From a virus, in IMG/VR virus record IMGVR_UViG_3300022752_000027, positions 59,736 through 123,735 of that record: DNA of 64,000 nt. One strand, 5' to 3'. The notes beneath the pieces are model-generated. The model did not search any database and had not been told where the DNA came from. It saw nothing but the letters and a program-made list of their open reading frames with translations. Below, piece after piece: positions 1 through 53,427 of this stretch (position 1 is its first letter; the number at the start of each line of letters is the position of its first letter). The translations under genes were made by a program, and so were the position numbers.

Positions 1-689
1 TAGGTACTTATGCCTGTTTTCTTCTTGAGAAAATGTAGGAATAGTAACTTAGAAATTCTAGGTTCAGAAGCACTAAACATATCCAGTTCATACTCTTTTG
101 TTAATGCCTTACGTAAAGCTATCTGACTCTTACTGAGTTCATATATTTTAGCCGTAGACTTAACGTCATTAATACAATACTGAATAATAGTATCTAGCTG
201 TTCTTGTTTTGTTATAGACGTTGTATGATGAATCGGCATCTCTTGGATGTTATACCAATCCATGCTATACTGAATCCACTTCAAACTAGATTTCTTTGCA
301 GGATTATCCCAATGATTTAGCTTATAAAGATCAATAGTATTTATTACACTATTGTTCCAGTTAGATTTAAAGTCTTGTTCATTAATAACTCTTTGTGCCT
401 CCTCATATATTTCAGCTGCTATATCCTGTCCGTGCATGTTATCATAAATACCTACACCAAACCGACTCATTATAAACGATGTAATATGATTGTCGAATCC
501 TATACCATTAAAACTGATATGGAATTCATCATCAATTACATTATCTACAAGAAATAAATATAGCTTCTGTACATCATTACGAAGCTTTGATATTACAAAT
601 ACTCTTAAATCTTCAGGATCTTTATAATGTTGTGCACAAAGAACTGTACAATCTACTAATGTCTCATAGTCTATGATCCAATGATTCAT
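1..689 (-). CDS. DNA polymerase, N-terminal 3'-5' exonuclease domain (probably family B, crAss type); truncated at window edge
   Basis: Not in the ORF track. Manual translation from ATG at 689 gives MNHWIIDYETLVDC...HISFNGIGFDNH...IDLYKLNHWDNPAKKSSLKWIQ...YCINDVKST, containing ExoI (DxE), ExoII (FN...FD) and ExoIII (YxxxD) motifs. Confidence 0.8.
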   Translation of the reverse strand, partial: MNHWIIDYETLVDCTVLCAQHYKDPEDLRVFVISKLRNDVQKLYLFLVDNVIDDEFHISFNGIGFDNHITSFIMSRFGVGIYDNMHGQDIAAEIYEEAQRVINEQDFKSNWNNSVINTIDLYKLNHWDNPAKKSSLKWIQYSMDWYNIQEMPIHHTTSITKQEQLDTIIQYCINDVKSTAKIYELSKSQIALRKALTKEYELDMFSASEPRISKLLFLHFLKKKTGIST

Positions 690-25210: not shown

Positions 25211-25221
25211 TAATAGATTAG

Positions 25222-31093: not shown

Positions 31094-34000
31094 TGAGAAG
31101 CATAGGTCTTACAGATGCAACTGGAAATAGTTACGGTTTCCCTAGAGTAACTGTATATGGTCCTGATGGTAAAATAAAGTTCCCAACAGGAGGGGGAGGA
31201 GGAGGTTCAGGTACAGTTACTTCTATAGGTATTACTGTACCATCTGGATTTAATGTTACCCCAAGTCTTATTACTACATCAGGTACCTTTGCCATAACTG
31301 GAGCTGGAACTACTGCTCAGTATATTGATGGTACAGGTGCATTGCAGACATTTCCATCAATACCTAGTTTTACTCCATCTGCCCTCACTAAAACAGATGA
31401 TACTAATGTGACCCTAACTCTTGGAGGTAGTCCTTCTGTAGCACTATTAGCCGCTACAAGTCTTACATTAGGTTGGACAGGTACACTTGCTACAGGTAGA
31501 GGTGGTACTGGACTTAGTAGTATTGGAACAGCTCTTCAATACCTTAGAGTAAATTCTGGCGCTACAGGATTAGAGTATGCTACATTTCCCACTATACCTA
31601 CGGTTAATCCTTCTGCATTAACTAAGACTGACGATACTAATGTAACTCTTACTTTAGGTGGTACCCCAGCAACATCTTTATTACAAGCTGTAAGTCTTAC
31701 CCTTGGCTGGACAGGTCAGTTATCAACTAGTCGTGGTGGTACTGGGTTATCTACAATAGGAACATCACTACAATACCTACGTGTAAATTCAGGAGGAACT
31801 GCATTAGAGTATGCTACCTTTCCTAGTACAAGTGGATTATTGCATGGTACAGCATCGGGCACAAATAACTATACTGTAACTATATCAGGAGTAACTGGTT
31901 ATGCAGATGGAGATGCCTACATTATTAAGTTTACTAATGGCAATGATGCAGACTCTGATATTAACATCAATGGTTTAGGGGTTAAAACTTTAGTAAAACA
32001 ATTTGATGTTCAGCTTACTGGGGGAGATATTGTATCAGGACAAGAGCTGATTATCATGTATGACGGTACTAATTTCCAAACTCTTGGAGTAGCACCTAAT
32101 CAGCTCTTTGCTTATGTAACTAATGATGATTCGGTTACTATAACTAAGGGTCAGCCAGTATATGCAGCTGGATCTGCTGGTAACAGGATGAGTGTTAAAC
32201 TTGCCTATAACACATCAGATACTACATCGGCACAGACCGTTGGTGTTGTATTTTCTACATCTATTGCCCCAAATCAAAGAGGGTTTATTATTACTCAAGG
32301 TGTTATATCTGGAGTAAATACAGCAGCATACTCAGCTGGTGCTCAGTTATATTTAGGTGCTACTGCGGGAACATTAACAGCTACTAAACCCTATGCCCCT
32401 AATCACCTTGTATATGTAGGTATTGTTGAAAGAGCAAATGCAGGTAATGGGCAGATATATGTCAAACCTCAGAATGGTTATGAACTAGATGAAATCCATG
32501 ATGTAGATCTAAAGAGTGTTGGGAATATTCCATCTAATAATGATATACTTACTTATATTACTGGGACAAATAATCTTTGGAAACCAAGAAGTATAGCAAC
32601 TATACTGGGATACACTCCTCAGGCACAGCTTAATGGAACCGGGTTTGTAAAAGCTAGTGGCACCACTATATCCTATGATAATAGTACTTATTATTTAGCA
32701 AGTAATCCAAGTAATTTTATCCCCCTTACTGCACTAAGTTCAACTGCAACAGGATTAACCTATACAAATACAACAGGTGTATTTAGTTTGACAAGTGGAT
32801 ATGTTATTCCTACTACATCTTCCGCAACCAATTGGGATACAGCATATACCAATCGAATTACTAGTTTAACAACAACTGGTTCCTCCGGTGCATCTACACT
32901 AAGTAGTAATACCCTAAATATTCCTAACTATACATTATCTGGACTAGGTGGCGTTCCAACATCAAGGCAATTAACTATTAATGGAACAACATATGATTTA
33001 TCAGCAGATAGATCCTGGACTATTTCCGCTGGTATAAGTTTGACTACTACAGGAACATCAGGAAATGCTACTCTTGTTTCAACTACATTAAATATCCCTA
33101 ACTATGGACTCAATGACTTAAGTCAGATATCAGTATCTACAAGTAATGCAAGAGAGGATAACTACGCACCAACAGGATGGCCAGGAACATCGGATAGAGT
33201 TAAAATAATTCGCATAGATTCTACTAACACCAACTACATGATGAGTCTTGGTGGATTGGCAAGTCCAACAGCTGGTAGAGTTGTAACTATTGTTAATGCA
33301 TCCGCAGCTAATAATCTAATTATTATTGAGAATCTATCCACTTCTTCTACAGCTGCTAATAGATTTAGGATGACCAGTAATATGGCCTATTTTTTACTTC
33401 CCACAAGAAGTATAACATTTATTTATGATGGTACATACTGGACACAGTTGTCAGCAAGTAATCCAATGGGATTAGATTTATTTGATGATTGCACAGGAGG
33501 ACCACAGAACTATGCCAATGGAGCAGTAGGAATAACTGCATCTATATCTAGTGGAACAAACTCTGGTATAAGGGCTGAAGGTGATTTATTTGGTTCTTTT
33601 GGACTATCTACAGGAACTACGGCAGCAGGAGGTGCTGCTATAACAACACAAGCAAGAAGAGCTGGAGCAAATAATGCATTTGCACTTAACTCTGATTATC
33701 CGTATTTAGTAGTTGGCAAATTAGCATTAATGCAGACGGCTACTGTAGCACAAGATTTTAAAGTTTGGTTTGGTATAAATGGAGATGGACCAACTGTATT
33801 AAATAATACTTTTAATCCAATAGGATATAATTGGTATTATAACGGCAGTAGTAGTTCTTTATGGGATAATAGAAGCCAAAATGCTGGAGGTACTGTATCT
33901 CAGGTAAGTAGTCCATTAACAGCTGCAGTTACATCTGTTGTATTAGGAGTATATAAACCAGGTGGAGCAAACATAAGGGATGCTGTATATTTCTACTCTA

Positions 34001-34155
34001 CTGACTATATCATATATCAAGTATCAACAAAATTTGTAGGGACAACTGGTAACTATGGTGGTAACATGGTTGGTCAAATATATTCAACTGCAGGAACAAC
34101 AGCCAAAGAACTTCGTTTTGATTATCATGGTGCATCAGTAAACTTAGTACGATGA
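31093..34155 (+). CDS. long tail fibre protein
   Basis: 1020 aa Gly/Thr/Ser-rich; poly-Gly hinge, RGGTG repeats, internal duplications, ITKGQPVY domain. Confidence 0.8.
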   Translation: MRSIGLTDATGNSYGFPRVTVYGPDGKIKFPTGGGGGGSGTVTSIGITVPSGFNVTPSLITTSGTFAITGAGTTAQYIDGTGALQTFPSIPSFTPSALTKTDDTNVTLTLGGSPSVALLAATSLTLGWTGTLATGRGGTGLSSIGTALQYLRVNSGATGLEYATFPTIPTVNPSALTKTDDTNVTLTLGGTPATSLLQAVSLTLGWTGQLSTSRGGTGLSTIGTSLQYLRVNSGGTALEYATFPSTSGLLHGTASGTNNYTVTISGVTGYADGDAYIIKFTNGNDADSDININGLGVKTLVKQFDVQLTGGDIVSGQELIIMYDGTNFQTLGVAPNQLFAYVTNDDSVTITKGQPVYAAGSAGNRMSVKLAYNTSDTTSAQTVGVVFSTSIAPNQRGFIITQGVISGVNTAAYSAGAQLYLGATAGTLTATKPYAPNHLVYVGIVERANAGNGQIYVKPQNGYELDEIHDVDLKSVGNIPSNNDILTYITGTNNLWKPRSIATILGYTPQAQLNGTGFVKASGTTISYDNSTYYLASNPSNFIPLTALSSTATGLTYTNTTGVFSLTSGYVIPTTSSATNWDTAYTNRITSLTTTGSSGASTLSSNTLNIPNYTLSGLGGVPTSRQLTINGTTYDLSADRSWTISAGISLTTTGTSGNATLVSTTLNIPNYGLNDLSQISVSTSNAREDNYAPTGWPGTSDRVKIIRIDSTNTNYMMSLGGLASPTAGRVVTIVNASAANNLIIIENLSTSSTAANRFRMTSNMAYFLLPTRSITFIYDGTYWTQLSASNPMGLDLFDDCTGGPQNYANGAVGITASISSGTNSGIRAEGDLFGSFGLSTGTTAAGGAAITTQARRAGANNAFALNSDYPYLVVGKLALMQTATVAQDFKVWFGINGDGPTVLNNTFNPIGYNWYYNGSSSSLWDNRSQNAGGTVSQVSSPLTAAVTSVVLGVYKPGGANIRDAVYFYSTDYIIYQVSTKFVGTTGNYGGNMVGQIYSTAGTTAKELRFDYHGASVNLVR
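31375..31824 (+). repeat. in-frame duplication with 78 aa (234 bp) period in the tail fibre
   Basis: PSALTKTDDTNVTLTLGG...LEYATFP occurs twice, starting at 31375 and 31609. Confidence 0.9.
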
Positions 34156-34457: not shown

Positions 34458-36719
34458 ATGTATAAAGCAATTTATTACAATTCTACGGCAATTTATAATA
34501 AGTATAAACTTGCTACAGGTGTTATTCAAGCACATGACCCTTTTAATATGGTTGTACTTGATACAGCAGATAAAACTCCTGGAACATCCACTGAAATTAA
34601 AAACACTTTTACCTTTTCAAGTCTAGATTCTATTCCAGCTAATAAGGCAATTATTAAAATACTTAGTGGATCAGAAAGTTCTTATGACATTGCCGTAGAG
34701 TATCTAAAAAATCAAAAGGTTACAGTTACAGATCAGTTTTATAATCTGGGTATTATTGTAGCCGAAATACCAAAAGGTAGTTATTCTAGTTTTGAATCTA
34801 AACTTAGTACTTGGCTTACCCCTTATGGTTTACAGTATGTAGAGCTAGACGTAGTACATACTATAGATCCAAATTATCAAATTCCATATAGTGAACACTG
34901 GCATCTAGGTAATATCCAAGCACAATGTGCCTGGGACGCTATGGATCCATATGCAGTAAATACAGATGACCCAATACCTGTAACTGCTCCAGGAGGAATT
35001 ACTTATGTTGGAGGTTGTAATCGTCCTGAAGTTGCTTTATTAGATGGGGGTGTTGAAATTAATCATCCCGATCTCATAGGCAGATTAAGTGGTGGCTGTA
35101 ATGTTAATCGCTTTGGCGAAAGTTCAACAAGTCTTAACTGGAATTGTGTAGATAATAACTCTAGTGTAATTCCAATTAATAGTTTTGATAATCATGGAAC
35201 AGCAATGGCAGGAGTTATTGCTGGAAATAATTTGAATTATCAATATAGTTTATCTGCATCTAATAACTATTTACGAGTTCAGGTTTTAAAGATAATGTAT
35301 CCGATAACAACCAATCAATATTATACAAGCTCTACTATACAGATATTGGCAATTAATAAGGCAGTTGCAAATCCTAATTGTGTAGCCATTAACATGTCTT
35401 TTGGAAGCACTGTTTACTCTAGTGCATTAGCAGATGCCATTTTGTATGCAAGAAATGTTGGTAGGGATTGTAAAGGTATTCCTTTATTTGCATCAGCAGG
35501 TAACTATTCACAGTCTAATCCTACTATTTATCCAGCATTGTATGACGGTGTATTACCAATTGCCGCATCTACTGCAGGAAATTTTAAAGCGTCATATTCA
35601 AATATGGGAGATTTTCTATTTGCAGCTGCACCTGGAGTTAATATCATAACTACAGATAGAGTTGGTGCAAATGGGTATTCTACTACAACAAGCTCAAACT
35701 CTACTACTCAGTATGATTCATATTACACAAATCTGGCTACATATAGATATTTTGGAGGTACGTCAGCATCTTGTGGAATTGCATCAGCAATAGCTGGTTG
35801 TATGGTTGCAGTAAATCCTAATATTACAGCAAATCAAATTGAAACTATATTAGCTGATACTGCTGCTCAGACAGGAGGTTATACATATGATCCTAAATCA
35901 AATGAGCTTGGTTATGGGGTATTAAGAATGTGTGATGCTATTCAAAGTGTTATTGATTCACTTCCTGATCAGTTACCTACTATTGATATTTCAACAGAAG
36001 TTACTAGTGGCGCTATTGCTTCAACAACATGTAGTAATATTGGTGTAACGACAACTGTTACAATTAATGAAGGAACCTCAGCTAATATTACTAATATGAC
36101 ACTTGATTACTATGCTTCAAACAGTAGTGCTGCAAATCCTAATATGATTTGGTTATACCAATCTTCATATACCACAGAATCAATAGGAAATTCTGCATAT
36201 ACCAATGATGAGTTTTATGTATCAAATATTCCAGCATTATATAATCCATCAGCATATCCATATCTTATTATAAGATATACTTTTTATGATGCATGCGGTC
36301 ATATTATCTCAGATGGTGAAACAGAAGTAACAGCAATGGTTCCAATGACTCTTACACAAGGTTGTGTAGCAACTGATGCAGCAGTAGAAATTATTAGTTA
36401 TGAGCTTGCTACTGGTGCTAACAATTCAATTCAAAGAAGATTTACTGTAAGATACACCAATACTGGAACAGTGCCAATTACAAACATTTATGTTAAAAGA
36501 GGATGGGTAGGAGGAGCTTATGCTTATCAGGCCATATCAGGATCAAATCTTTCTACTACTGGTGTACTGAATCCGGGTCAAACTAGAACTGCTGTTATTA
36601 CATTTAATCAGCCAGTTCCAGCTTTACCTGCTACTTATTACACACAAATTCTTACTGTAAATGGCAATTCAGATAGTAATCCTGGAAATAATTATGCTTC
36701 CTTTACTATAACTGCATAA
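34458..36719 (+). CDS. S8 subtilisin-like serine protease with CARDB-like C-terminus (copy 1)
   Basis: VALLDGG, HGTAMAG, ASAGN, GGTSAS. Confidence 0.92.
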   Translation: MYKAIYYNSTAIYNKYKLATGVIQAHDPFNMVVLDTADKTPGTSTEIKNTFTFSSLDSIPANKAIIKILSGSESSYDIAVEYLKNQKVTVTDQFYNLGIIVAEIPKGSYSSFESKLSTWLTPYGLQYVELDVVHTIDPNYQIPYSEHWHLGNIQAQCAWDAMDPYAVNTDDPIPVTAPGGITYVGGCNRPEVALLDGGVEINHPDLIGRLSGGCNVNRFGESSTSLNWNCVDNNSSVIPINSFDNHGTAMAGVIAGNNLNYQYSLSASNNYLRVQVLKIMYPITTNQYYTSSTIQILAINKAVANPNCVAINMSFGSTVYSSALADAILYARNVGRDCKGIPLFASAGNYSQSNPTIYPALYDGVLPIAASTAGNFKASYSNMGDFLFAAAPGVNIITTDRVGANGYSTTTSSNSTTQYDSYYTNLATYRYFGGTSASCGIASAIAGCMVAVNPNITANQIETILADTAAQTGGYTYDPKSNELGYGVLRMCDAIQSVIDSLPDQLPTIDISTEVTSGAIASTTCSNIGVTTTVTINEGTSANITNMTLDYYASNSSAANPNMIWLYQSSYTTESIGNSAYTNDEFYVSNIPALYNPSAYPYLIIRYTFYDACGHIISDGETEVTAMVPMTLTQGCVATDAAVEIISYELATGANNSIQRRFTVRYTNTGTVPITNIYVKRGWVGGAYAYQAISGSNLSTTGVLNPGQTRTAVITFNQPVPALPATYYTQILTVNGNSDSNPGNNYASFTITA

Positions 36720-36802
36720 AAATTAGTATTTTTATATCATAATCTAACACGGTAGGTCCTAGATAACTTCTAGGACTTACTTGTGTTATAAAAATAATAA
36801 TC

Positions 36803-38854
36803 ATGAGCAAAATCAACTCTGTTAAATTCAAAGACAAGAAGTCATTTGATAAAAACAAAACAAAGCCTAATGTGCTTGCAATACATGAACCTTTTGGAAT
36901 CATTATCTTTAAAGATGACAATGAGGTAGTTCCCGATACTGCTAAAGTATCCCAAACCAATACAGTAGACGCATCCTTAGATCAGATTTCTACAGGTCTT
37001 GCCATTCTTATTGCTCATGACTATAATGAGGGGTTGGCTTATCTTAAATCTGCAAATGTTGTTATTAAAGAATCATTTGAATTAACCAAAACCTTTTTTA
37101 CCGAAGTTCCTGATTTTATTCCATTTGATTCTTTTTACGGTAGTATCATGTCTACTGGATTGTTTATCAGTGTAGAACCTGATTATATTGTCCCAATGCA
37201 GACAACTGCAGAAACTCCATATACAGGTCATTGGCATTTAGGTGATATGAAATGTGCTGAGGCTTGGACCTTACTTCCTGATGGAGTAGTTAAAGAAGTG
37301 GCCGTACTTGATATTGGTTGCGAAACTACACATGAAGATTTAGCAGGTATGATTAGTTCTACATCTTGGAACTGTGTTACAGATGCCCCAGATGTAAATC
37401 CTATTAGTGAATATGAAAAGCATGGTACATGTTGCTCAGGTGTAATTGCAGCAAATACTGGAAATGATATTGGCTGTAAATCAATCGGTAACAATCACCT
37501 TAAAGTACAGTTCCTACATATTGGCTATAACAGTTCAAGTACGGGAAGTTTTTCTACCTCAGATACTATATGCACAAGAGCAATAAATAAAGCTATTGCT
37601 AACCCTAATTGTGTTGCTGTTTCAATGTCATGGGGAGGAGGTAGCGCATATCCAATATTCAGTAATGCATTAAATAATGCTAGAACAATAGCAAGAGGTG
37701 GAAAAGGTATTCCAATTTTTGCTAGTTCTGGTAATCAAAACAATGCTAACTTTAATCAATTTCCAGCAGCATATCCGGCTGTAATGGCTGTAGGAGCAAC
37801 TACAAGCACTAATACAAGAGCAAGTTTTAGTAACTATGGTCCACTTTTGTATGCCTCTGCTCCAGGTGTAAGCCTCTGGACAGTAGATCGTACAGGTGCT
37901 GCAGGATATGGTCCAGATTCGTATAAAGGATTTTCAGGTACCTCAGCATCTTGTCCAGCAATGGCAGCAGTAGCAGGTTGTATACTTGTGAAGAATGAAA
38001 ATCTTACTGAGGTACAGGTTCGTGACATTATAAAAAATTCCTGCAGAAAACTGGGAGGCTATGTTTATGATTCAACTGGAAAATCCCTAGAACTTGGATG
38101 GGGAATTGTAGATATGTACTCTGCAATTTCATTGGCTGGTGGTACTAATCCTGGTGAACCTACGCCTGGACCTACATATAATATTTTTGGGACTATATCA
38201 TCTCAAGCAACAATCGAACAAGGACAAATTGCTAACATAACTTATTCAGTTATTTCAGATAAAGCAATGACCCAAGATACAGCTGTAGGTGTAAACATAG
38301 CATTTAAAAAACCTGATGGCTCAAGTTTAAACTTCTATTCTGGAAACATAACTATTAGTGCTGACCAGACTACAAAGTCTATGAATATTCCATTTACAGT
38401 TCCTAATACAATCAGCGGTCCATGCCAGTTTATAATGACCGTAGATCCAAATAATTTTGTACAGGAAACAAATGAAAATGATAATGTAGCATTTACGTCT
38501 ATTAATGTAACTCAAATGCCTACACCAACTAATGGTGTTGATGGTGAGATTACAATTACTGGCTATGAATGGGTTGATGCAACAAGGGTTAGAATTAGAT
38601 ATATGCTTACTAATAGAGGCACAACCACTATAACATCTTGGAAAGCAGTAGTTGGTTTTGATGGAATGTCACAGATTACTTGGAATAGAAATGATGTAAT
38701 TGCACCTGGAAAGTATGGTGCCTTTGGTTCTGTATTTAGTAGTAATTTATATGGTACTCTTCCAAATACATTTAGAATCAACGTTACCCAGGTAAATGGA
38801 GTACCGGATTCAAATATTTCTAACAATACTGCATCTATTTTAGTATCTTATTAA
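36803..38854 (+). CDS. S8 subtilisin-like serine protease with CARDB-like domains (copy 2)
   Basis: VAVLDIG, HGTCCSG, ASSGN, SGTSASCP; VDPNNFVQETNENDN. Confidence 0.95.
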   Translation: MSKINSVKFKDKKSFDKNKTKPNVLAIHEPFGIIIFKDDNEVVPDTAKVSQTNTVDASLDQISTGLAILIAHDYNEGLAYLKSANVVIKESFELTKTFFTEVPDFIPFDSFYGSIMSTGLFISVEPDYIVPMQTTAETPYTGHWHLGDMKCAEAWTLLPDGVVKEVAVLDIGCETTHEDLAGMISSTSWNCVTDAPDVNPISEYEKHGTCCSGVIAANTGNDIGCKSIGNNHLKVQFLHIGYNSSSTGSFSTSDTICTRAINKAIANPNCVAVSMSWGGGSAYPIFSNALNNARTIARGGKGIPIFASSGNQNNANFNQFPAAYPAVMAVGATTSTNTRASFSNYGPLLYASAPGVSLWTVDRTGAAGYGPDSYKGFSGTSASCPAMAAVAGCILVKNENLTEVQVRDIIKNSCRKLGGYVYDSTGKSLELGWGIVDMYSAISLAGGTNPGEPTPGPTYNIFGTISSQATIEQGQIANITYSVISDKAMTQDTAVGVNIAFKKPDGSSLNFYSGNITISADQTTKSMNIPFTVPNTISGPCQFIMTVDPNNFVQETNENDNVAFTSINVTQMPTPTNGVDGEITITGYEWVDATRVRIRYMLTNRGTTTITSWKAVVGFDGMSQITWNRNDVIAPGKYGAFGSVFSSNLYGTLPNTFRINVTQVNGVPDSNISNNTASILVSY

Positions 38855-38871
38855 TAGTAAAAAATTAAAAC

Positions 38872-41130
38872 ATGTTCTATTCAATAGTATTCTCAACACA
38901 AAAAGCTTTATTAACAGCTGCTAAGTTACCTGGTGTGCATTCTGTGCACACACCATTACAAATGATCATTTTTGAAGGATCTGTTCCTTCAAAACTTGAC
39001 CCTAAAACAGTAATTTATATATCGGAGCCATATGCCGGAATTGAAGAGGCTAAAACAGGACTAGTAATTTTTACTGCGGCAACTAATAAATTTTTAGATT
39101 TAGTAAACTACCTGAAGAAATCAGCAGTACTTGTTTTAGATACTTTTCCAGAAACAAATATTATCATTACCAGAATGCCTACAATGACAACGTGGACTAA
39201 GTTTAATGCTAAACTTGCCAAAGAAGCATCGTCATTAATTGGATTTGTAGAAGAGGATTTAACATTTAATGTTGTTCCAGATTCTCCAGATTATGCATAT
39301 GGAAATTATACATATGAGCAACATGGTTGGTTAAATTCAATAAATGCAGGAGATTCGTATTCAATGATTTCTGCACTTTCTGGTGAAAAACATGTTGCTA
39401 TTTTTGATTCATCATTTGATATTAACCATCCTGATTTAGTTGGCAGATCTGCATTTAACTGGAACTGTGTTGATAATAATTCAAATGTAGATGTTATTGC
39501 AGGAGATCCATATTATAATTCTTCTTTGGGTCAAATGGATTTTGCATATCCTCAGCATGCTACTGCAATGGCAGGTATTGTTGCGGCAAACTCTACAAAT
39601 GGAATTCTTGTACAGTCTAATACTTTAAATAAAGTAAAGGCACAAGTATTAAAAGTACTTTATCCATATAATATTAATACCCCCACACCAACTATTATCT
39701 ATAACACAACAAATTCTGCGTTGATTCGTGGATTTAATCGTGCTATGTTAAATAATTCTTGTGCGGCAATAAGTATAGCATGGACAGGCTCAGCATTTAC
39801 ATCACAAGTATATAGTGTAATGAATTATGTACTTCAGAGTGCTAGAAATTGTAAAGGTATTCCAATCTTTGTATCTGCAGGTAATGTGCCAACTGACCAA
39901 ATTAATTATTTTCCAGCTGCCTATGGACAAAGCACAAAACTATGCACGATAAGTGGGACATGTTGCGGAACAATAGACCGTGAAAATTCACTAATTGCAT
40001 CATTTTCTAGTTTTGGTATTAATGTTTTTATAGCAGCTCCAGCAGTACAGGTTTTAACAACAGATGTTAGTGGAACATACGGATATTCCTATTCATCAGA
40101 CCCTAGTGTAAATGCTGTAACATATTTCAATGGAACATCGGCATCTGCACCAATTGTTGCTGGAGTAGCAGCATTAATGTCTTTAGTAAATTCAGGTTTA
40201 AGTGTAACAGATATTAGAACAATTTTAAAAAATAGTGCATTGCAAGTCAATCCAGGAACTGCAGAAGGAGAATATAATTATTCAGGAGTTGGTGGCTTTT
40301 TTGATACTGGAGGTAGTAAATCTAATGAGTTGGGATATGGTTTACTTGATCAATATTCTGCACTAATAGGTGCTGCTGCATTTGTACCAGCAACTGGAGG
40401 ATCTGATTTAAGTTTTTCTGAAATTGATATTCCAGATACAATTTATGCTGGAGATACAATTACTGTAAGTTTTGGAATTGATATTGATCCTGGATTTATC
40501 TATCAAGCAACAGGGTGCTCATCTAATAGTATTAAAGTTGCATTTTATAGTTCATCGACTCCGTATTATACGACTGCCAATTGCCCATTGATTTATGAAA
40601 CTACAGTTTATCCAGAACTTGGGGATACTTCAATTTCTAGTACATTCCCCTACACTGTACCATGTAATGCAACTGGTGATGTTTACATTATTGGAAATGT
40701 AGATTATGCAGAGTTATATCATGAAGGTGATGAAACTAATAATATTGGCGTTAGTAATTCAATGACTATAAATGGAATTTTAGCGCCTTGTCAGATTACT
40801 GATTTATCCGTAAGCATTATTTCAAGTTCATTACAGACAAATGGGTATAGATCATTTGTAGTTAGATTTACTAATACAGGAAATACTAATATTACTACTT
40901 TTAACTGGACAAGAGGTTGGTTAAATTCTCCAACTGGATCTCAAACAACAGGTACGTATAACTTTTCAGCAAGTACTCCACTGTTACCAGGAGCGTCAAG
41001 AAATGTTTCTGTAACATGGGCACAGTATGCGGCATCTTTCCCAGCTACTTGGTTTGCAAGAATTAATACTGTAAATGGTGCGCCAGATGCTGTTATAAGC
41101 AATAATACATCAACAATTGAAGTAAACTAA
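38872..41130 (+). CDS. S8 subtilisin-like serine protease with CARDB-like domains (copy 3)
   Basis: VAIFDSS, HATAMAG, VSAGN, NGTSASAP; EGDETNN. Confidence 0.92.
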   Translation: MFYSIVFSTQKALLTAAKLPGVHSVHTPLQMIIFEGSVPSKLDPKTVIYISEPYAGIEEAKTGLVIFTAATNKFLDLVNYLKKSAVLVLDTFPETNIIITRMPTMTTWTKFNAKLAKEASSLIGFVEEDLTFNVVPDSPDYAYGNYTYEQHGWLNSINAGDSYSMISALSGEKHVAIFDSSFDINHPDLVGRSAFNWNCVDNNSNVDVIAGDPYYNSSLGQMDFAYPQHATAMAGIVAANSTNGILVQSNTLNKVKAQVLKVLYPYNINTPTPTIIYNTTNSALIRGFNRAMLNNSCAAISIAWTGSAFTSQVYSVMNYVLQSARNCKGIPIFVSAGNVPTDQINYFPAAYGQSTKLCTISGTCCGTIDRENSLIASFSSFGINVFIAAPAVQVLTTDVSGTYGYSYSSDPSVNAVTYFNGTSASAPIVAGVAALMSLVNSGLSVTDIRTILKNSALQVNPGTAEGEYNYSGVGGFFDTGGSKSNELGYGLLDQYSALIGAAAFVPATGGSDLSFSEIDIPDTIYAGDTITVSFGIDIDPGFIYQATGCSSNSIKVAFYSSSTPYYTTANCPLIYETTVYPELGDTSISSTFPYTVPCNATGDVYIIGNVDYAELYHEGDETNNIGVSNSMTINGILAPCQITDLSVSIISSSLQTNGYRSFVVRFTNTGNTNITTFNWTRGWLNSPTGSQTTGTYNFSASTPLLPGASRNVSVTWAQYAASFPATWFARINTVNGAPDAVISNNTSTIEVN

Positions 41131-41144
41131 TACTATTCATTGGA

Positions 41145-43601
41145 ATGATAAACGCAGTAACATATAAAACAGGTGCTTTATATAAAAAAGCATTAGCTGA
41201 TAAGAATATTTTACAGACACATGAGCCGTTTAATATCATAGTATATGATGACCCGTCTCCTGTAAAAAGGGATATGACGACTATTCGTAGAATTACTGAG
41301 GTTGATGATATTACTAAAGTTCCAACTGGATTAGCGTTATTAAAAGTTAATTGTGATCTTTTTGAAACTCGCTTAGATCCGGATTATCGAATTAATATGG
41401 ACCTTAAATATGAGGCTGAAAAAATCCTAAAAGAAAATAATGTAAAAGTTATTGATACAATACCACTTACATTTGGATATATTGTAGAAATACCTTCTAA
41501 TTTATCTTTTACAAAATTTACTGAAAAAATTAATAAAACATATAATGATCAAAATATTTTTTTAGTAATTGAGGAAGATGTAATTTTTGATGCACAGTCT
41601 TGTGATTACTATGCATGGCCTGATAGTTCTCAATGGCATCTTAAAGATATTCAAGCAAATCAAGCATATGCACTATTAGATCAAGGTGGCTATAACTCAG
41701 AAGATGGTACTACATATGGAGAATGGTATACCAGAGACGTAGCAATTATTGATGGTACAGGTTTTGAACTTAGTCATCCAGATTTATATAATACTGATTA
41801 TCCAGTAGACCATCCTGGTCGTGTTATGACTAGAGAAAACTGGGATTGTGTAAACAATAATAGTAATCCTCAACCAAGTGGTCCAAATGATAAACATGGT
41901 ACCGTCATGGCAGGAATAGCTGCATCAGGATGGGCAGATAGAAGATTTTTAAAAGGTGTTGGTTTAGATCATATTAATGCACAATGTCTTAGAATAGGAT
42001 ATAATGTTGGAATAAATGGTGCATTTTCAACATCAACCACTTTTGTAATAAGGGCTTTAAATAAAGCAATATTAAATACTAACTGTGCGGCAATTGCAAT
42101 GCCATATTCGCATGGAGGATTTTCAGTATTTACTAATATTATGCTAAATAATATTAGATATTTTAGTAGATTTGGAAAAGGAATGTTGGTTTTTGCTGCT
42201 TCTGGAAATAGTGGAGCAAGTAGTATTTCTAATGTTTATCCAGCAGCATATGATAATGTATTAGCTATAGGCGCTAGTACTGTAAGTCATTCAAGAGCTT
42301 CTTTTTCAAACTATGGTTCTGATTTATTTGCAACTGCTCCAGGAGCTTCAATTTTTGCAATTGACCGCTGCTGTAGTAGGGGATATAATATAAATCCAGA
42401 CCCCACCTATGGGTCAGTGACATATTTTAGCGGTACATCTGCATCTGCAGTCATTGCAGCTACTATAGCCGCTACAATGGTTGTGGCAAATCCTGATATT
42501 ACTGCACTACAGATTAAAACAATATTAGAAATTACTGCCAGAAGAATTGGTCCATATACTTATTATTCTACAAGTAATGAGATTGGATTTAATCTCAGTA
42601 CTAATCCTGAAATGGGTAATGGTATTCTAACCCAAGCTACTGCAGTACAAAAAGCACTTGAATATGCTTCAGTAAATCAAACCGCATATTTAAATTATGC
42701 GATAGATACTTTAAGTTTTTCTCAAGGTGACTTTGACAATGGTTTACAGGTTGCAACAGGTAGTGCTGTTCAATGGTTAATGGATATTAGTATTACAAAT
42801 GATTCTCCAGAACCCTTACCAGTAAGTGTAAATACTATTAATGTAAGAGTTTCAGTAACATTAGAAACTGATGGCCCAACACCAACTGCAAGTACACCAA
42901 TGATGCCTCTTTCTAATACTGCCTATATTTATGGACCACAAGATGTCGTGGTTCTTCCTGGAGAAACTATAACAAGGACTGTTACATGCCAGAGTGGAGG
43001 TTTAGAAAGATACAGTTGTCTTTTAGAGGGTAATTATTATTTTGTTGCTAAAATTGATAGTGCCGATTATGTTGTAGAAACAAGTGAAGAAGATAATATT
43101 GTATATATTCCTGTAGAATATATATATACTGAAGGTAGCATTGGATATTGTTCTCAAACCTGTGATCCTACTCAATACCCAGATGTGCAAATAAGAATTG
43201 ATTATTTAACAGTACAAAGGTTGGATCAAGCACTTCCTGCCCCATATACTGGATATTTTTGGAAAATAAAAGCAAGATTTACAAACTTAGACACCATAAA
43301 TGCAAATAGTTTTTGGGTAAGATATAACTGGAATCCAAGTATAATAAGTGGAGTATGGGAACAATGGGTTTTTGAGAACTCTTCGTTTATAAATGATGAT
43401 AATCTTGTACCATATGCCCCACAGTTTCAAATGCTTACACCTTTACTACCAGGAGAATCAAGATATATAGAAAAAATTATTGGATATCCACCATTACAAT
43501 ATCCTGCTATAATGACAGCTGTTGTTGCTATAGTTAATACATGGCCAGTAAATAATATTCAACCAATACATTTTACACAATCGGCTATAATATATCAATA
43601 A
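41145..43601 (+). CDS. S8 subtilisin-like serine protease with CARDB-like domains (copy 4)
   Basis: VAIIDGTG, HGTVMAG, AASGN, SGTSASA; VVETSEEDN. Confidence 0.92.
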   Translation: MINAVTYKTGALYKKALADKNILQTHEPFNIIVYDDPSPVKRDMTTIRRITEVDDITKVPTGLALLKVNCDLFETRLDPDYRINMDLKYEAEKILKENNVKVIDTIPLTFGYIVEIPSNLSFTKFTEKINKTYNDQNIFLVIEEDVIFDAQSCDYYAWPDSSQWHLKDIQANQAYALLDQGGYNSEDGTTYGEWYTRDVAIIDGTGFELSHPDLYNTDYPVDHPGRVMTRENWDCVNNNSNPQPSGPNDKHGTVMAGIAASGWADRRFLKGVGLDHINAQCLRIGYNVGINGAFSTSTTFVIRALNKAILNTNCAAIAMPYSHGGFSVFTNIMLNNIRYFSRFGKGMLVFAASGNSGASSISNVYPAAYDNVLAIGASTVSHSRASFSNYGSDLFATAPGASIFAIDRCCSRGYNINPDPTYGSVTYFSGTSASAVIAATIAATMVVANPDITALQIKTILEITARRIGPYTYYSTSNEIGFNLSTNPEMGNGILTQATAVQKALEYASVNQTAYLNYAIDTLSFSQGDFDNGLQVATGSAVQWLMDISITNDSPEPLPVSVNTINVRVSVTLETDGPTPTASTPMMPLSNTAYIYGPQDVVVLPGETITRTVTCQSGGLERYSCLLEGNYYFVAKIDSADYVVETSEEDNIVYIPVEYIYTEGSIGYCSQTCDPTQYPDVQIRIDYLTVQRLDQALPAPYTGYFWKIKARFTNLDTINANSFWVRYNWNPSIISGVWEQWVFENSSFINDDNLVPYAPQFQMLTPLLPGESRYIEKIIGYPPLQYPAIMTAVVAIVNTWPVNNIQPIHFTQSAIIYQ

Positions 43602-45685
43602 TGATGAAAACAATAAATTCTGTAAAGTTTAAAAGTCAAAGTACTTTTGAAAAGACTAAAGTAAAATCTAATGTTTTACAGGTTCACGAGCCTTTTAATA
43701 TTGTTGTATTTGAAGATGATGCTCATGTAGATCCTGATTTTTCAAAAGTAAAACAAACTAATAAGGTTTCCGATCTAAAAGAAATACCTTCAGGTTTAGC
43801 TACGGCAATTGCATTTGACTATAAAAAAGCAAAGAAATTTTTAAAAGATTCTAATATTGACATAGTAAATGATTTTGAGTTAACTAAAACATTTATTATA
43901 GATATTCCGGATCATACGGCTTTTGAGGATTTTAGAACTCTTGTAATTGGATCAAATCTATTTGCCTCAGTTGTTGAGGATAAGATTATAGAGAGTAAAT
44001 CAAACTTGACAAACTATCCATATTCCGCACACTGGTGGTTAGGTAATATTAATGCATCTTCTGCTTGGTCACAATTAACTGCGCCAGGTTTAGTTGATGT
44101 TGCTGTAATTGACGGAACGGGTTGTGAGGTATCACATCCTGATTTAGTTGGAAAAACAAACCTGAACTGGAACTGCGTAGCTAATAATAGTAATGTAAGT
44201 CCTGTTTCTGATAATGAAAAACACGGTACTCCATGTGCCGGAATTATTGCAGCTAACTGTGCAAACAATGAGCTTGTATTATCTGTTGGAAATGATAAAG
44301 TAAGAGTACAGTTCCTAAAAGTAGGGTATAACCACACATCTACAGGCTCTTGGAATACATCAGATGCAATTTTAACAATGGCTGTAAATAAGGCAATTGC
44401 AAATACAAATTGTGTTGCAATATCAATGTCTTTTTACACTTCTATTTCTGGAGGATTTAAATCAGCATTAACAAGTGCTAAAGTATCAGGTAGAGGGGGA
44501 AAAGGAATGCCTTTGTTTGCATCTTCAGGTAATGATGGTGCATCATCAGTTACTCAAGCTCCTGCTGCATGGCCAGAAGTAATGGCTATTGGTGCATCTA
44601 ATAGTACTAATACTAGATCATCTTTTTCAAATTATGGAACTAGTCTTTTTGCAGCAGCTCCAGGATCATCAGTGCTTACTACAGATAGAACTGGCGGAAA
44701 AGGCTATTCTATAAATGTAGACCCTACTTTAGATGCTGTAACTTACTTTAGTGGTACTTCAGCTGCCTGTCCTGTTATGGCCGGTGTAGCTGGTACAATG
44801 ATTCTTGCAAATCCTAATTTAACAGAATCTCAAGTAAGAACAATACTTGCACAGACAAGTAGAAAACTTGGCGGCTATAACTATACTAGTGGCAAATCCC
44901 TAGAATTAGGATATGGCATTGTTGATCAAAACGCTGCAGTTGCAGCTGCTATTGCAGCAACTACAGTAGTACCGGATGTTCCAAACATCAGCATGATAAT
45001 GTCAGCACAAGGTACTGCTGTACAGGGAAGCATAATTCCAATTAACTATACTGTAAATTTATCTACTGCACAAACTAGTGCCTTAACACTAAGAGTATCA
45101 TTTTATAGATCGTTGAATACTATTCTTGAAGCTAATGATACATTGATTCAAACAGAAGTAATTACAGTACCAGCAAGTACTACCATGTATACTTCTGGCT
45201 TTAATTATACTGTTCCAACTAACATAGTTGGAAATCTATATGTTATTGGTTTTGTGGACAGTACGAATATTGTTTCTGAGCCAATTGAAACTGATAATAC
45301 AGCAAGTGTCGTAATTAATGTAGTTACTACAGGTCCAGTACCATCAAATAGTGGTTTAGATTTATCTGTGCAGCTTATTCAAACTAGATATGCTACCAAT
45401 GGAAAACTTTATGTAAAACAAAAGTTTACTAATGTCGGTTCAGTTGCAATCACAAGTTATAAATTTGTGAGGGGATTTATTGGTGGCACACAGCAAACTA
45501 AACAGATTAATAATGTCAATATGCAACCTGGACAATCTGTAACAAGTGAAACTGTTTGGAGTAACTATCCTCCAGCATATCCAGCAACTTATAAGATAAC
45601 TATAACAGAAGTAAATGGAGTAGTTGATTCAGTTGCCACAAATAATGTTAGTACAATTCAAGTAAATGAGAATGTTGCGCTATGA
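43601..45685 (+). CDS. S8 subtilisin-like serine protease with CARDB-like domains (copy 5)
   Basis: VAVIDGTG, HGTPCAG, ASSGN, SGTSAACP; VDSTNIVSEPIETDN. Confidence 0.95.
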   Translation: MMKTINSVKFKSQSTFEKTKVKSNVLQVHEPFNIVVFEDDAHVDPDFSKVKQTNKVSDLKEIPSGLATAIAFDYKKAKKFLKDSNIDIVNDFELTKTFIIDIPDHTAFEDFRTLVIGSNLFASVVEDKIIESKSNLTNYPYSAHWWLGNINASSAWSQLTAPGLVDVAVIDGTGCEVSHPDLVGKTNLNWNCVANNSNVSPVSDNEKHGTPCAGIIAANCANNELVLSVGNDKVRVQFLKVGYNHTSTGSWNTSDAILTMAVNKAIANTNCVAISMSFYTSISGGFKSALTSAKVSGRGGKGMPLFASSGNDGASSVTQAPAAWPEVMAIGASNSTNTRSSFSNYGTSLFAAAPGSSVLTTDRTGGKGYSINVDPTLDAVTYFSGTSAACPVMAGVAGTMILANPNLTESQVRTILAQTSRKLGGYNYTSGKSLELGYGIVDQNAAVAAAIAATTVVPDVPNISMIMSAQGTAVQGSIIPINYTVNLSTAQTSALTLRVSFYRSLNTILEANDTLIQTEVITVPASTTMYTSGFNYTVPTNIVGNLYVIGFVDSTNIVSEPIETDNTASVVINVVTTGPVPSNSGLDLSVQLIQTRYATNGKLYVKQKFTNVGSVAITSYKFVRGFIGGTQQTKQINNVNMQPGQSVTSETVWSNYPPAYPATYKITITEVNGVVDSVATNNVSTIQVNENVAL

Positions 45686-47781
45686 AACTAAATGCCGTAA
45701 AATTTAAAGATCGTAAAGCCTTTGATAAGAATAAATCAAAGGCAAATGTTGCTGCTTTCTACGATCAGCACAATGTAATTGTCTTTAAAGATAAAGCATA
45801 TGTAAAACCAGATAAGGTAAAAGTTTCTCACGTTGAACAAATTTTAGATGTTAAATATGGTGTACCGACCAGTATTGCCATACTTAAACCATCAAATTAT
45901 CACATAGGTTTAGGCATTTGCGAAAAAATGAATTTAAAAATTATAAATTCATATCCGCAAACAAGGACAATCATAGTTGAAATTCCTGAGCATATGTCAT
46001 ATACAAAATTTTATGAAACAGTTTTTAGTGCTGGATCATTTGATTTTATTGAACAGGATATAATTACTCAATTTGGAACTCATGCAAATTTTGCCTATAA
46101 CGACCATTGGCAATTAATTGCTATGAATGCTCAGGAAGGATGGAATATTATTGCACAAAATCCTCCAGTACAAAATAATATTGTAACAGTAATAGATATT
46201 GGATGTGAAACAACGCACCCAGATTTAACTGGTCAAGTAATTAATACACTTAATACTGTAACAAATACAACAGATGTTTTACCTTCATCACAGTATGATA
46301 ATCACGGAACTTGTTGTACAGGATTAATTGTTGCAAATCCAACTAATGGAATTAATACAATAGGTGTGGCAGGTCCATATACTAAAGCAAGTTTTGTAAA
46401 TCTTGCCGTTATGGATAATCCCCATACATTTTCAACAAGCACAACACAAAAAGTGCAGGCTATTAATCATGCCATTAGTATGCCTAACTGTGTTGCAATT
46501 TCTATGTCTTTTGGTGGAGGCAACATTGAACAAGCATTTGAAGATGCTCTTGTTGAGGCACAACAGATCGGAAGAGGAGGTAAAGGAATAGTTTGTTGCG
46601 CATCATCTGGTAATCAAGGATTATTTAATGATGTTCAATATCCTGCTTATTATCAAGGTGTTTGTAGTATAGGTGCACTTGATTTTAATGACTTTGATTA
46701 TAAAAAAGCAAGTTATTCTAACTACGGTGTAGAATTATTTGCTGCAGCTCCTGGATCATATACACCAACTACAGATAGAAGTGGTTCAGCAGGATATTCA
46801 CTAGACAATACTACTTATTTTAGCGGTACATCAGCCGCATGTCCTGTATTTGCTGGTGCTGTTGCTGCAATAGCAGCAGCATCTCCTAATCTAACAGCGG
46901 AACAAATAAAAAATATAATTAGAGAAAGTTGTGTCCAAATAGGTGGATATAATTATAACGGCAATCCTGTTTATCCAAACAGATCGTATGAAACAGGTTA
47001 TGGAATGATTAGTATTGAAAATGCTGTTGCTCTTGCTGTTGGCGGAACTGTTTCACCAGATCCAACAATTCCTATAAATGTTCGTGTTACTGTAAGTACT
47101 GTATCATTATCATTTCCAAATAGCACAGTGCCACTTACATATACAATTATATGTAATAAGGTTTTACAAACAGACACTAATATTTCAGTTACTATTTTTA
47201 AATCTGCTAATAATTCACCTGTTTTAGAACCGGCAGATACAGTACTTACCACATTAACTATTACTATTCCTGCTGGTCAATATCGTTATCAGGGATCTTA
47301 TGATTTTGTAGTAGATAATTCCTGGATAGGTTTAACTTATATAGGTGTTTATGCGGCATCATTGCCAGGAGAAACATTTACTGTTGATAATTATGGATTT
47401 AGAGCAATTCAAGTAATAGGTGAAAGTGCTCCACCAAACTTAAATTTAAAGGCCAGAATTCAAAAAATTACTCTAAATTCTGATTTTACAAAAGCTATTG
47501 TTTATTTTGATATTCAAAATACAGGTTTAACACCAGTAACAAGATTTACAATTAAAAAAGGATTTGTTGGGTATGAGGAGTATGTTTATGAAGTAATTTA
47601 TGATCTTCAAACTGATAAATATTATGTTGAAGAAACAGCATGGGAATTACTTCCTCCTCCAAATTTCTTGTATAGCACACCCTTTAAAATTGAAATTACT
47701 TCTGTAAATGGAATTTTCCCTGATGATGTAACAACAGATAATAGTGCATCTTATAACATAATTCCATCAGTTAATCCTTAA
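45682..47781 (+). CDS. S8 subtilisin-like serine protease with CARDB-like domains (copy 6)
   Basis: VTVIDIG, HGTCCTG, ASSGN, SGTSAACP. Confidence 0.95.
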   Translation: MKLNAVKFKDRKAFDKNKSKANVAAFYDQHNVIVFKDKAYVKPDKVKVSHVEQILDVKYGVPTSIAILKPSNYHIGLGICEKMNLKIINSYPQTRTIIVEIPEHMSYTKFYETVFSAGSFDFIEQDIITQFGTHANFAYNDHWQLIAMNAQEGWNIIAQNPPVQNNIVTVIDIGCETTHPDLTGQVINTLNTVTNTTDVLPSSQYDNHGTCCTGLIVANPTNGINTIGVAGPYTKASFVNLAVMDNPHTFSTSTTQKVQAINHAISMPNCVAISMSFGGGNIEQAFEDALVEAQQIGRGGKGIVCCASSGNQGLFNDVQYPAYYQGVCSIGALDFNDFDYKKASYSNYGVELFAAAPGSYTPTTDRSGSAGYSLDNTTYFSGTSAACPVFAGAVAAIAAASPNLTAEQIKNIIRESCVQIGGYNYNGNPVYPNRSYETGYGMISIENAVALAVGGTVSPDPTIPINVRVTVSTVSLSFPNSTVPLTYTIICNKVLQTDTNISVTIFKSANNSPVLEPADTVLTTLTITIPAGQYRYQGSYDFVVDNSWIGLTYIGVYAASLPGETFTVDNYGFRAIQVIGESAPPNLNLKARIQKITLNSDFTKAIVYFDIQNTGLTPVTRFTIKKGFVGYEEYVYEVIYDLQTDKYYVEETAWELLPPPNFLYSTPFKIEITSVNGIFPDDVTTDNSASYNIIPSVNP

Positions 47782-47786
47782 TTACT

Positions 47787-48155
47787 ATGAAAAAATTTCT
47801 ATACTACTTACAGAAATATGATGGTATATGGAGTATACCATTAGCATTCATGGGTTTTTTTCTAGCTGGCCAATACAGCTTTGAATACTTTGGGGATGCA
47901 ATTATCTCTACAGAATACCTACAATTTGCAGTACTCACATCATTAATTATGGTATTTGCTAATTTTGTAGTATTCTTAGGTATTAACTTTAACTTTAGAA
48001 GTCTTCAGAGATACTTCTACTCAAAAGAAATCAAATATGACATACAAGCTAATCTAACAACATGGCAAAGAATAAAGTTATACTTATTAGTCTACTTTGG
48101 ATTTTTATTCATCTTCCTCTTTATTCTATATTTGCTAATGACGGTTACTGCGTAA
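47787..48155 (+). CDS. putative holin
   Basis: Three hydrophobic segments, directly upstream of and overlapping the endolysin. Confidence 0.6.
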   Translation: MKKFLYYLQKYDGIWSIPLAFMGFFLAGQYSFEYFGDAIISTEYLQFAVLTSLIMVFANFVVFLGINFNFRSLQRYFYSKEIKYDIQANLTTWQRIKLYLLVYFGFLFIFLFILYLLMTVTA

Positions 48156-48643
48156 GGGTAACAGCATCAAGTTATGTTGGAGTAAGAGAGAAGGGAGGTA
48201 ATAACCAGGGGTTTACTAAATGGGATTTTAGGCAACTTATGGTAGAAAATGGATGGAAACCAGGTAATGCGTGGTGCGCATATTTTGTAAAAGCAATGCT
48301 TAATGAATGTGGAGTACCTAATAATATTACTGGTTGGTCTCCAACAGCTTACAATAAGAATGACGTAATCTTTACTGACGGTAAATTTTATAAGTCTTTT
48401 AATGATGGTGATGTACTAGTTATGACTTTAAGTTATCCAGATAAGTATGGAACAACTAGATATAAAGCTATAGGGCATACAGGAATAGTAGATAAAATTG
48501 GTCAGTATTCTATAAGGACAATAGAGGGGAACACTAATGAACAGGGTATGAGAGATAGCAGAACTACTGACGGAGTATATTATAAAATCAGACCATTAAC
48601 TAAAAAATTACATATTACAAGATGGGCAAAACATCAAAACTAG
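48062..48643 (+). CDS. CHAP-domain endolysin with N-terminal signal/SAR segment
   Basis: GVREKGGNN, AWCAYFV, GHTGIV, TIEGNT; hydrophobic N-terminus. Confidence 0.85.
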   Translation: MAKNKVILISLLWIFIHLPLYSIFANDGYCVRVTASSYVGVREKGGNNQGFTKWDFRQLMVENGWKPGNAWCAYFVKAMLNECGVPNNITGWSPTAYNKNDVIFTDGKFYKSFNDGDVLVMTLSYPDKYGTTRYKAIGHTGIVDKIGQYSIRTIEGNTNEQGMRDSRTTDGVYYKIRPLTKKLHITRWAKHQN

Positions 48644-49044
48644 GAAAAATAGGGGTTATACTAGCAGTAGTTATTATACTACTATCTATATTCTTTAGTA
48701 TTAAAACTTGTACTAAAAAACCAGTAACTAATCCAGCTGTTGATAGACTGCATGAAATAAACGATAGTTTATATGAAGTCATTGAAGAAAATAACCGAAT
48801 AGCAAATGATCTTTACAATAAATTGGATTCTATAACAATTATATCGGATACAATTATTCAACGTCAAGAGATTACCAATAAATACTATAAAAATGAAGTT
48901 TATAACATTCTTAGCAGTAATGATGCTGATGCCAATACTCAGTTTAGGGCAACCCTCAAAAAGTCAGACTCCCTCCTTAAAAGTGGATTCTACTCCAAAA
49001 CTTACGACTTACGATCTTCAGCTAATGAATCTAAACTTCACTAG
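48622..49044 (+). CDS. putative spanin component (N-terminal TM + coiled coil)
   Basis: TM helix ending KTC, coiled coil, follows the endolysin. Confidence 0.55.
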   Translation: MGKTSKLGKIGVILAVVIILLSIFFSIKTCTKKPVTNPAVDRLHEINDSLYEVIEENNRIANDLYNKLDSITIISDTIIQRQEITNKYYKNEVYNILSSNDADANTQFRATLKKSDSLLKSGFYSKTYDLRSSANESKLH

Positions 49045-49336
49045 TATGTACTATTGGTACAACACGGCAATGGAAATTGATTCAGTGTACCAGCTAGAGA
49101 AGTTAAAGACACACTACTATTCTAAGATTACTGGCATTCAAGCTGATAGCTATCAGACCTTGCAGGAAATCTATGATAATAAGCAAGCTATTGAAAAAGC
49201 AATAGCGCAAGAAAAGGAGATGCAGATAAAAGACCTAAAGAAAAAAAACAGACGGCTTATATTCCAAAATGTTGGATTATCTGTTGGTGTTGCATGTCTT
49301 TCACTTACAACAATTTATTTTGCAATTGTTCCATAA
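48893..49336 (+). CDS. putative second spanin component (signal peptide + C-terminal TM)
   Basis: Overlaps 48622..49044 by 152 nt; signal peptide ending SLG-Q; C-terminal hydrophobic helix. Confidence 0.5.
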   Translation: MKFITFLAVMMLMPILSLGQPSKSQTPSLKVDSTPKLTTYDLQLMNLNFTSMYYWYNTAMEIDSVYQLEKLKTHYYSKITGIQADSYQTLQEIYDNKQAIEKAIAQEKEMQIKDLKKKNRRLIFQNVGLSVGVACLSLTTIYFAIVP

Positions 49337-50490: not shown

Positions 50491-50512
50491 TAAACTTTAA
50501 AAGTGTCATAAT

Positions 50513-52363: not shown

Positions 52364-52366
52364 GCA

Positions 52367-53044: not shown

Positions 53045-53056
53045 AATATTAATAAG

Positions 53057-53161: not shown

Positions 53162-53162
53162 C

Positions 53163-53426: not shown

Positions 53427-53427
53427 A

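Follow-up and report, generated by a model that had tools for sequence, protein, structure and literature searches.

A conserved N-terminal module ahead of the I9-like prodomain in six tandem phage S8 proteases, possibly an extra propeptide lobe

Classical subtilases are secreted with a signal peptide, and the locus described here raises the question of what a segment shared by six phage subtilases, none of which has such a peptide, does at their N-termini. The locus lies in a window of 64,000 nucleotides that forms the second half of a 123,735-bp virus record (~124 kb; IMG/VR record IMGVR_UViG_3300022752_000027), rated complete by CheckV. It consists of six tandem S8 subtilase genes, arranged head-to-tail on the + strand (34458–47781). 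The encoded proteins, P1–P6, have 683–818 residues and share one layout, in which a segment of ~55 residues, here called the N-module, is followed by an I9-type prodomain fold, a catalytic domain with intact Asp/His/Ser residues, and two β-sandwich domains. We tentatively favour the view that the N-module adds a further lobe to the zymogen pro-region, one that, by analogy with classical subtilisins, would keep a cytoplasmic protease latent until lysis. This view is preferred because module and I9-like domain form a single unit in the model and the module is linked exclusively to this S8 family, and because the proteases have no export signal and lie next to lysis genes.

The N-terminal module and its distribution

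All six copies match Peptidase_S8 (PF00082) with E values of 1e-24 to 3e-36 (87.5–125.9 bits, cut-off 21.8), and the Asp-His-Ser triad and the oxyanion Asn occur in order and are invariant in a six-way alignment (D196, H246, N349 and S436 in P1 numbering). P1 (34458–36719, + strand, as for all six; 753 residues) has the triad D196/H246/S436 and a PF00082 E value of 5e-28. P2 (36803–38854; 683 residues; PF00082 E 2.6e-36), the copy that was modelled, has in addition a CARDB match of 27.2 bits; weak CARDB matches are present in the C-terminal part of three of the six proteases. P3 (38872–41130; 752 residues), P4 (41145–43601; 818 residues), P5 (43601–45685; 694 residues) and P6 (45682–47781; 699 residues) are each defined by an open reading frame (ORF), a Pfam match and the triad.

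No signal peptide of the Sec or lipoprotein type was found in any of the six proteins, a hydrophobic core at least some ten residues long and close to the N-terminus being taken as the criterion; the maximum 12-residue Kyte–Doolittle mean within the first 60 residues is 0.69–1.82. In each case at most 15 open codons separate the upstream stop from the start, and there is therefore no room for a signal peptide further upstream. For the comparison of the N-termini, hhalign profiles were made from the first ~58 residues only, with a separate alignment for each type (P1- to P6-type, and one distant group). Of 21 paralogue-type pairs, 20 gave a probability of 93–99.9% (E 2.5e-7 to 6e-34), the weakest pair being P3-type against P6-type at 61.8%. 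Because these separate type profiles match each other, the similarity is more than chance. Hydropathy and cross-type comparison thus bear out the preliminary description of the locus, according to which all six proteases lack a signal peptide and carry a related segment instead, and the five peptides quoted there are the true N-termini of P2, P5, P4, P1 and P3. Its start of the array, 34458, is correct; the end given, 45900, falls inside P6, and the array continues to 47781.

In P1 the module covers the first 56 residues (34458–34625, + strand throughout), as judged from the alignment, a module-only profile (E 3.5e-21) and the cross-type hhalign comparison, and in P2 the first 58 (36803–36976), from the secondary structure predicted by AlphaFold2 and the same profile (E 1.6e-30). 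Alignment, module-only profile and hhalign together place it at 38872–39042 in P3, 41145–41312 in P4, 43601–43777 in P5 and 45682–45855 in P6. The H(E/D)PF motif by which the module had been characterised holds in four of the six copies, but is replaced by HTPL in P3 and by YDQH in P6. Similarly, the (V/I)E.D ending ascribed to the segment that follows is exact in five copies, whereas P5 has VVED, with the Asp still aligned. In orthologues, the HEPF histidine is often Phe or Tyr (VFEPFG, VYEPFG, SFDAFG). Since it is exchangeable for these side chains it looks like a packing residue, with a structural rather than a catalytic or metal-binding role. Nearly invariant positions in the module alignment are V7, F9, K17, K19, N23, V24, F36, D38 and V49, and among the P2 orthologues the charged surface positions K8, K10, D11, K17, K19, K21 and N23 hardly vary.

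The module-only profile, which contains the six copies themselves, has just six matches in the whole 123,735-bp genome, each at a protease start and none in any other gene. A 136-position profile of the whole pro-region, run with HMMER against 1.84 billion representative proteins, returned 35 matches at E≤0.001, all belonging to this protease family. Scored with a hidden Markov model (HMM) of the module alone, 29 of these reach 27–104 bits, always from residue 1–8, and three are weak (5–13 bits, also N-terminal), which places the module at the extreme N-terminus in 32 of the 35. The three matches without it are P0109, which is a fragment, P0106, which starts at the I9-like part, and P0104, a metagenomic protein of 697 residues on a 7.3-kb contig, where a clear signal peptide and 37 unmatched residues precede the I9-like part. 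P0104 is the only relative in the family with a clear N-terminal signal peptide. A likeness of its residues 22–58 to the module, noted by eye, found no support, as the module-only HMM gives −0.4 bits and hhalign aligns the I9-like part only; with P0104 as query against genome contigs, no cellular homologue was found. In a set of 5.8 billion clusters, the module-only profile gave 223 matches; PF00082 is present in 109 of the 120 that were listed, the remaining 11 being proteins of 119–228 residues. Every cluster member whose origin was looked up is metagenomic.

Among 185,579 species genomes, the pro-region profile matched one place, a 2.9-kb contig of a metagenome-assembled genome (MAG) that also carries phage holin-like and CHAP genes and is therefore a phage fragment. 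This contig, locus L086, is binned in a Phycisphaerales MAG; as most likely a phage fragment, it says nothing reliable on the host. The matches are thus confined to this protease family. In the preliminary description the module was called unrecognised, and it remains so in Pfam (no significant family in 33 pro-region members), among PDB sequences (no match at E≤10) and in PHROGs (nothing significant for the N-module, the lowest E being 0.016, reached by 3 of 24 members). With residues 1–60 as query, the ESM Atlas gave a best score of 0.78, below lead level. Judged from these sequences, the module is restricted to this S8 family and always stands at the extreme N-terminus.

Predicted fold of the pro-region and likeness to known prodomains

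Full-length P2 was modelled by AlphaFold2 with a predicted local distance difference test score (pLDDT) of 87.4 from a 48-row alignment, and residues 1–136 with pLDDT 92.9 and a predicted template-modelling score (pTM) of 0.79 from a 33-row alignment of the pro-region. The two models agree in the secondary structure of the pro-region. The N-module is predicted as β-α-β-β-β, with a strand at residues 3–9, a helix at 12–18, and strands at 24–28, 33–38 and 49–54. From the pLDDT and pTM over residues 1–136, module and I9-like domain are taken to be modelled as one unit, and they are joined by a turn of 7 residues. The I9-like domain (residues 61–130; 36983–37192, + strand) is predicted as β-α-β-β-α-β, with strands at 62–71, 88–92, 97–101 and 121–129 and helices at 74–83 and 108–116, ends with VEPD, and directly precedes the catalytic domain. 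The following linker (residues 131–143; 37193–37231, + strand) contains the only segment with pLDDT below 50 (132–134). By analogy with classical subtilisins it is the presumed autoprocessing region, with cleavage somewhere within it.

When model residues 62–136 were compared with solved prodomains by VIA-align, the best agreement was with the EpiP prodomain (3t41; Z 8.4, root-mean-square deviation (rmsd) 2.5, 68 residues aligned), followed by pro-subtilisin E (3whi) and CspC (both Z 6.7), the furin/PC1 prodomain (Z 6.6), the BPN' prosegment (3bgo_P; Z 6.3) and fervidolysin (1r6v; Z 5.9). The Pfam I9 model (PF05922) matches none of 33 pro-regions at E≤10. Nevertheless, the earlier assignment of an I9-like segment after the module, ending in (V/I)E.D, was right as far as fold and motif are concerned. 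The segment has the same fold as the classical I9 propeptides (BPN'/E, Tk-subtilisin, EpiP, furin/PC1), the same position before the catalytic domain, and a last strand ending in (V/I)E.D. The classical propeptides differ in that they align only from residue ~61 of P2, leaving the preceding lobe of ~55 residues uncovered.

Fold searches with the 136-residue model (Foldseek against the PDB, VIA and BFVD) are dominated by the I9-like part, and they left residues 1–60 uncovered except in two cases. One is a family member in BFVD, A0A6J5R7S5, which comes from an uncultured Caudovirales phage and whose pro-region is predicted to fold almost identically (TM 0.92). The other is a weak match to ORF2 (3wqb_B), the external chaperone of the Aeromonas sobria serine protease, which has a propeptide-like body and an extra N-terminal part. 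ORF2 is the only solved chain that aligns into the module (model residues 3..135, 85 residues, rmsd 3.8, 14% identity), with a middling Z of 6.1, but it is a separate protein, whereas the phage module is part of the enzyme. Fervidolysin has the same four-part layout of propeptide, catalytic domain and two β-sandwich domains (Foldseek, 701 columns, E 6.8e-22), and its prodomain aligns over model residues 61..129. However, the TM-score to P2 is 0.37 at 16% identity, so that the domain arrangement differs, and the N-module is unaligned; the Pfam model Fervidolysin_NPro-like matches one of 33 members (E 0.073).

These comparisons bear on the simplest alternative, that the module is an ordinary N-terminal part of a known S8 prodomain widespread in cellular subtilases. 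Some solved pro-regions and chaperones do exceed 77 residues, ORF2 reaches into the module, in fervidolysin ~34 residues precede the I9-like fold (chain range 35..105), and in P0104 a stretch of 37 unmatched residues separates the signal peptide from the I9-like part. Against this alternative, the 1.84 billion representatives gave matches in this family only, the PDB sequences and Pfam gave nothing significant, the species genomes gave a single phage fragment, and P0104 scores negatively with the module HMM. At the sequence level the module was not seen as a regular part of any known cellular S8 prodomain, and we regard this alternative as very improbable. What appears to be new, from the sequences, is a bipartite subtilase pro-region in signal-less phage enzymes, with a module that falls in no described family among those compared. 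A search of full-text literature, supplements being outside its scope, found no paper dealing with subtilases from crAss-like phages or their relatives, or with a propeptide extension of this kind.

Two structural ideas on the origin of the module were considered. Weak Foldseek matches of the 136-residue model to tandem ferredoxin-like/ACT proteins (E 0.017–0.045, rmsd 13–15) give only a hint that the module may be a degenerate second ferredoxin-like lobe. An internal duplication of the I9 domain, giving a tandem prodomain, was rejected, with an hhalign probability of 0.2% between the module and the I9-like part. A complex prediction of residues 1–58 against 59–447 gave interaction prediction scores from aligned errors (ipSAE) of 0.01 and 0.04, where the mark is 0.32; it was run without controls and counts neither way.

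Latency lobe, virion anchor or targeting tag

In the mechanism that we tentatively favour, module and I9-type domain would make up a two-lobed pro-region of ~130 residues on proteases produced in the infected cytoplasm without an export signal. The pro-region would fold and block the enzyme, as in classical subtilisins, and the extra lobe would strengthen or control this latency, keeping the protease silent during virion assembly. The zymogen would then leave the cell when the adjacent holin-like/endolysin cassette lyses the host. Finally, the pro-region would be cut off in the linker at residues 131–143, the module departing together with the I9-like part, and the protease thus set free would carry two CARDB-like binding domains, both of them variable.

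The gene order fits a release of this kind. Only 5 nt after P6 follows a holin candidate (47787–48155, + strand), a multi-pass membrane protein of 122 residues, recognised from its sequence, without a family match and always paired with a CHAP gene in the relatives. The CHAP-domain endolysin gene (48062–48643, + strand) is assigned from PF05257 (28.1 bits, cut-off 26) and phrog_9589, an endolysin family (E 2.8e-8). In 12 long related loci, the protease adjoins such a holin-like/CHAP pair in eight, in either order; the pair lies ~5 kb downstream in three, and none was seen in one. Holin-like and CHAP genes also stand next to the protease in L086 and in a further locus, L087. Canonical endolysins have no signal peptide and are released through holin lesions. 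The phage proteases resemble them in having no export signal and in the location of their genes, but differ as proteases with a zymogen pro-region rather than peptidoglycan hydrolases, and by analogy their exit would depend on the holin.

A point that complicates the propeptide view is the degree of conservation. Among 43 P2 orthologues, the mean pairwise identity is 77.7% in the module (residues 1–38), 70.4% in the catalytic domain and 58.8% in the I9-like domain, and lowest in the two β-sandwich domains (49.4% and 48.1%). The P1 lineage follows the same order, with 61.7% for the module, 48.2% for the catalytic domain and 35.8% for the I9-like domain. The ratio of non-synonymous to synonymous differences (pN/pS) was obtained from 203 orthologue pairs that are 80–97% identical and come from 63 coding sequences. 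It is lowest in the module (0.084), followed by the S8 domain (0.134) and the I9-like domain (0.168). Since pS is similar across the regions (0.52–0.62), the constraint is on the protein and not on the DNA. The N-module is thus the most constrained region of the protein. Between the six paralogues it is second to the catalytic domain alone (33.7% against 40.7% identity), and each paralogue lineage has its own conserved surface. Strong purifying selection of this kind fits virion docking and an inhibitory or latency element alike.

A third reading of the same conservation, which we consider rather improbable, takes the module as a targeting or recognition tag, for packaging as cargo, for passage through or binding of the lysis machinery, or for binding to the host envelope through the Lys-rich helix. 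The many conserved charged surface positions in the P2 orthologues, the concentration of purifying selection in the module and the lineage-specific surfaces would all suit such a tag. The Lys-rich pattern is, however, weak in P1, P3 and P4, the comparisons with Pfam, PDB sequences, PHROGs and the ESM Atlas revealed no similarity of the module to a known targeting sequence or domain, and the idea is purely inferential.

Several observations speak against the propeptide reading. Subtilase propeptides are textbook intramolecular chaperones and inhibitors that usually evolve faster than the enzyme, whereas here the module is more constrained than the I9-like and even the catalytic domain. The combination seen here, a conserved N-terminus and C-terminal domains that vary, is typical of phage receptor-binding proteins and unexpected for a disposable propeptide. 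The protease genes also sit directly after tail-fibre genes, and a fibre-like gene lies upstream of the protease in most relatives. In addition, no known prodomain with such an extra lobe was found in the searches made, and the analogy to propeptides is therefore one of position only.

These points favour the main rival, that the N-module docks the protease on the tail, where the I9-like domain would tether the cleaved enzyme in a latent state on the particle, the one to six copies acting as interchangeable "depolymerases" for surface proteins. We consider this a serious rival, though the less likely of the two readings. Tail fibre and tailspike anchors of multi-tailspike phages have a conserved N-terminus followed by variable C-terminal domains, and their copy number varies between related phages. 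The proteases are alike in these respects, with one, two, five or six copies and the order of types retained, and a missing signal peptide fits a virion protein. On the other hand, the module does not resemble the anchors of this phage's own fibre-like proteins. In the three fibre-like proteins (ORFs 31093, 49378 and 53428), an N-terminal module leads into a Gly5–7 hinge, but in the proteases, which lack a Gly hinge, the module passes directly into the I9-like domain and forms a single modelled unit with it rather than a free adaptor. No other gene of the phage carries the module, nor does any non-S8 protein among the matches listed. In loci L014 and L068, moreover, the protease gene follows the endolysin and not a fibre gene. 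The family was not found in cultured phages, where tblastn gave 2 weak S8 matches among 50,697 phage records. The predicted unit with the I9-like domain and the lack of a Gly hinge lean towards the propeptide reading over virion docking.

The most far-reaching form of the anchor reading is one that we judge rather improbable. The proteases would then be virion-tethered zymogens, in which the module anchors the pro-region to the tail and the I9-like domain holds the cleaved protease latent until host contact. If this were true, one to six exchangeable "warheads" with variable CARDB-like domains would shave different proteinaceous surface layers, as a protein-directed counterpart of the multi-depolymerase phages.

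The copy number also bears on the proposal, made in the preliminary description, that the six paralogues would fit one hetero-hexameric ring on a six-fold tail. In its favour, six genes coding for homologous N-termini share one operon. An S8 ORF is present at 75 related IMG/VR loci. At 28 of these the gene is flanked on either side by 2.5 kb or more, and in this well-flanked set 25 loci have one protease gene and three have two, one of the second copies being an end fragment on the other strand. The closest syntenic relatives, with a terminase ~76% identical, have a single copy. In L087 (3685–14904), five tandem proteases occur in the order P1-, P2-, P4-, P5- and P6-like, with no P3-like copy, followed by the holin-like and CHAP genes. 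This was the one locus detected in viral contigs with the P1-type alignment as query, and a single-sequence scan of viral contigs with P4 found no relatives. That relatives carry one, two or five copies argues against an obligate six-membered ring, which we consider extremely unlikely.

Under the propeptide reading as under its rivals, the strongest constraint in the protein falls on an undescribed lobe, and this lobe is found only in uncultured phages that, by terminase, are distantly crAss-like. Knowing its role would reveal how a broad protease is kept from doing harm while phage particles are assembled, or how one is mounted on the particle, and would provide a handle on why these phages carry one to six such enzymes beside fibre and lysis genes.

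Other genes around the array

Upstream of the array lies the gene of a 1020-residue fibre-like protein (31093–34155, + strand), in which an N-terminal module precedes a Gly6 hinge; it was assigned from its sequence and a weak Phage_depo_C match, and its homologues precede the protease in relatives. Downstream, the lysis cassette (47787–49336) also holds a 140-residue protein with an N-terminal membrane anchor and a 147-residue protein with a signal peptide and a C-terminal anchor, which form a spanin-like pair, and the ORF at 54806–55156 gives a weak Rz-like spanin match (E 0.0044). The two further fibre-like ORFs (49378–50490 and 53428–54786) both begin with MDIVNW, followed by the Gly5–7 hinge, whereas the 1020-residue protein has a module of its own. 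Another common N-terminus (MATW/MATL) is present in ORFs 50513–52363 and 52367–53044. In relatives, the genes of 49378–54786 are absent from this position or located elsewhere, which suggests that fibres as well as proteases have expanded in this phage.

On the − strand, a 232-residue ORF (29723–30421) is 89–91% identical to a + strand ORF just upstream of the terminase in L011, L065, L071 and L077. Its conservation far exceeds that of the neighbouring genes, and in this phage the ORF has been moved and inverted. Three transfer RNA genes (Leu-taa, Arg-tct and Lys-ctt; 25062–25620, − strand) mark the switch from the − strand early/replication block to the + strand late block.

The genes for the large terminase (phrog_6681) and the portal protein (phrog_6547, P22_portal) at 57878–62845 point to a distant relation to the crAss-like phages of Bacteroidota, and from the terminase Bacteroidota would be the candidate hosts. 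The terminase, for which 130 phage records were matched, is 24–26% identical to those of crAss-like phages of Bacteroides, Flavobacterium and Cellulophaga, and on this comparison the phage would be classed as distantly crAss-like.

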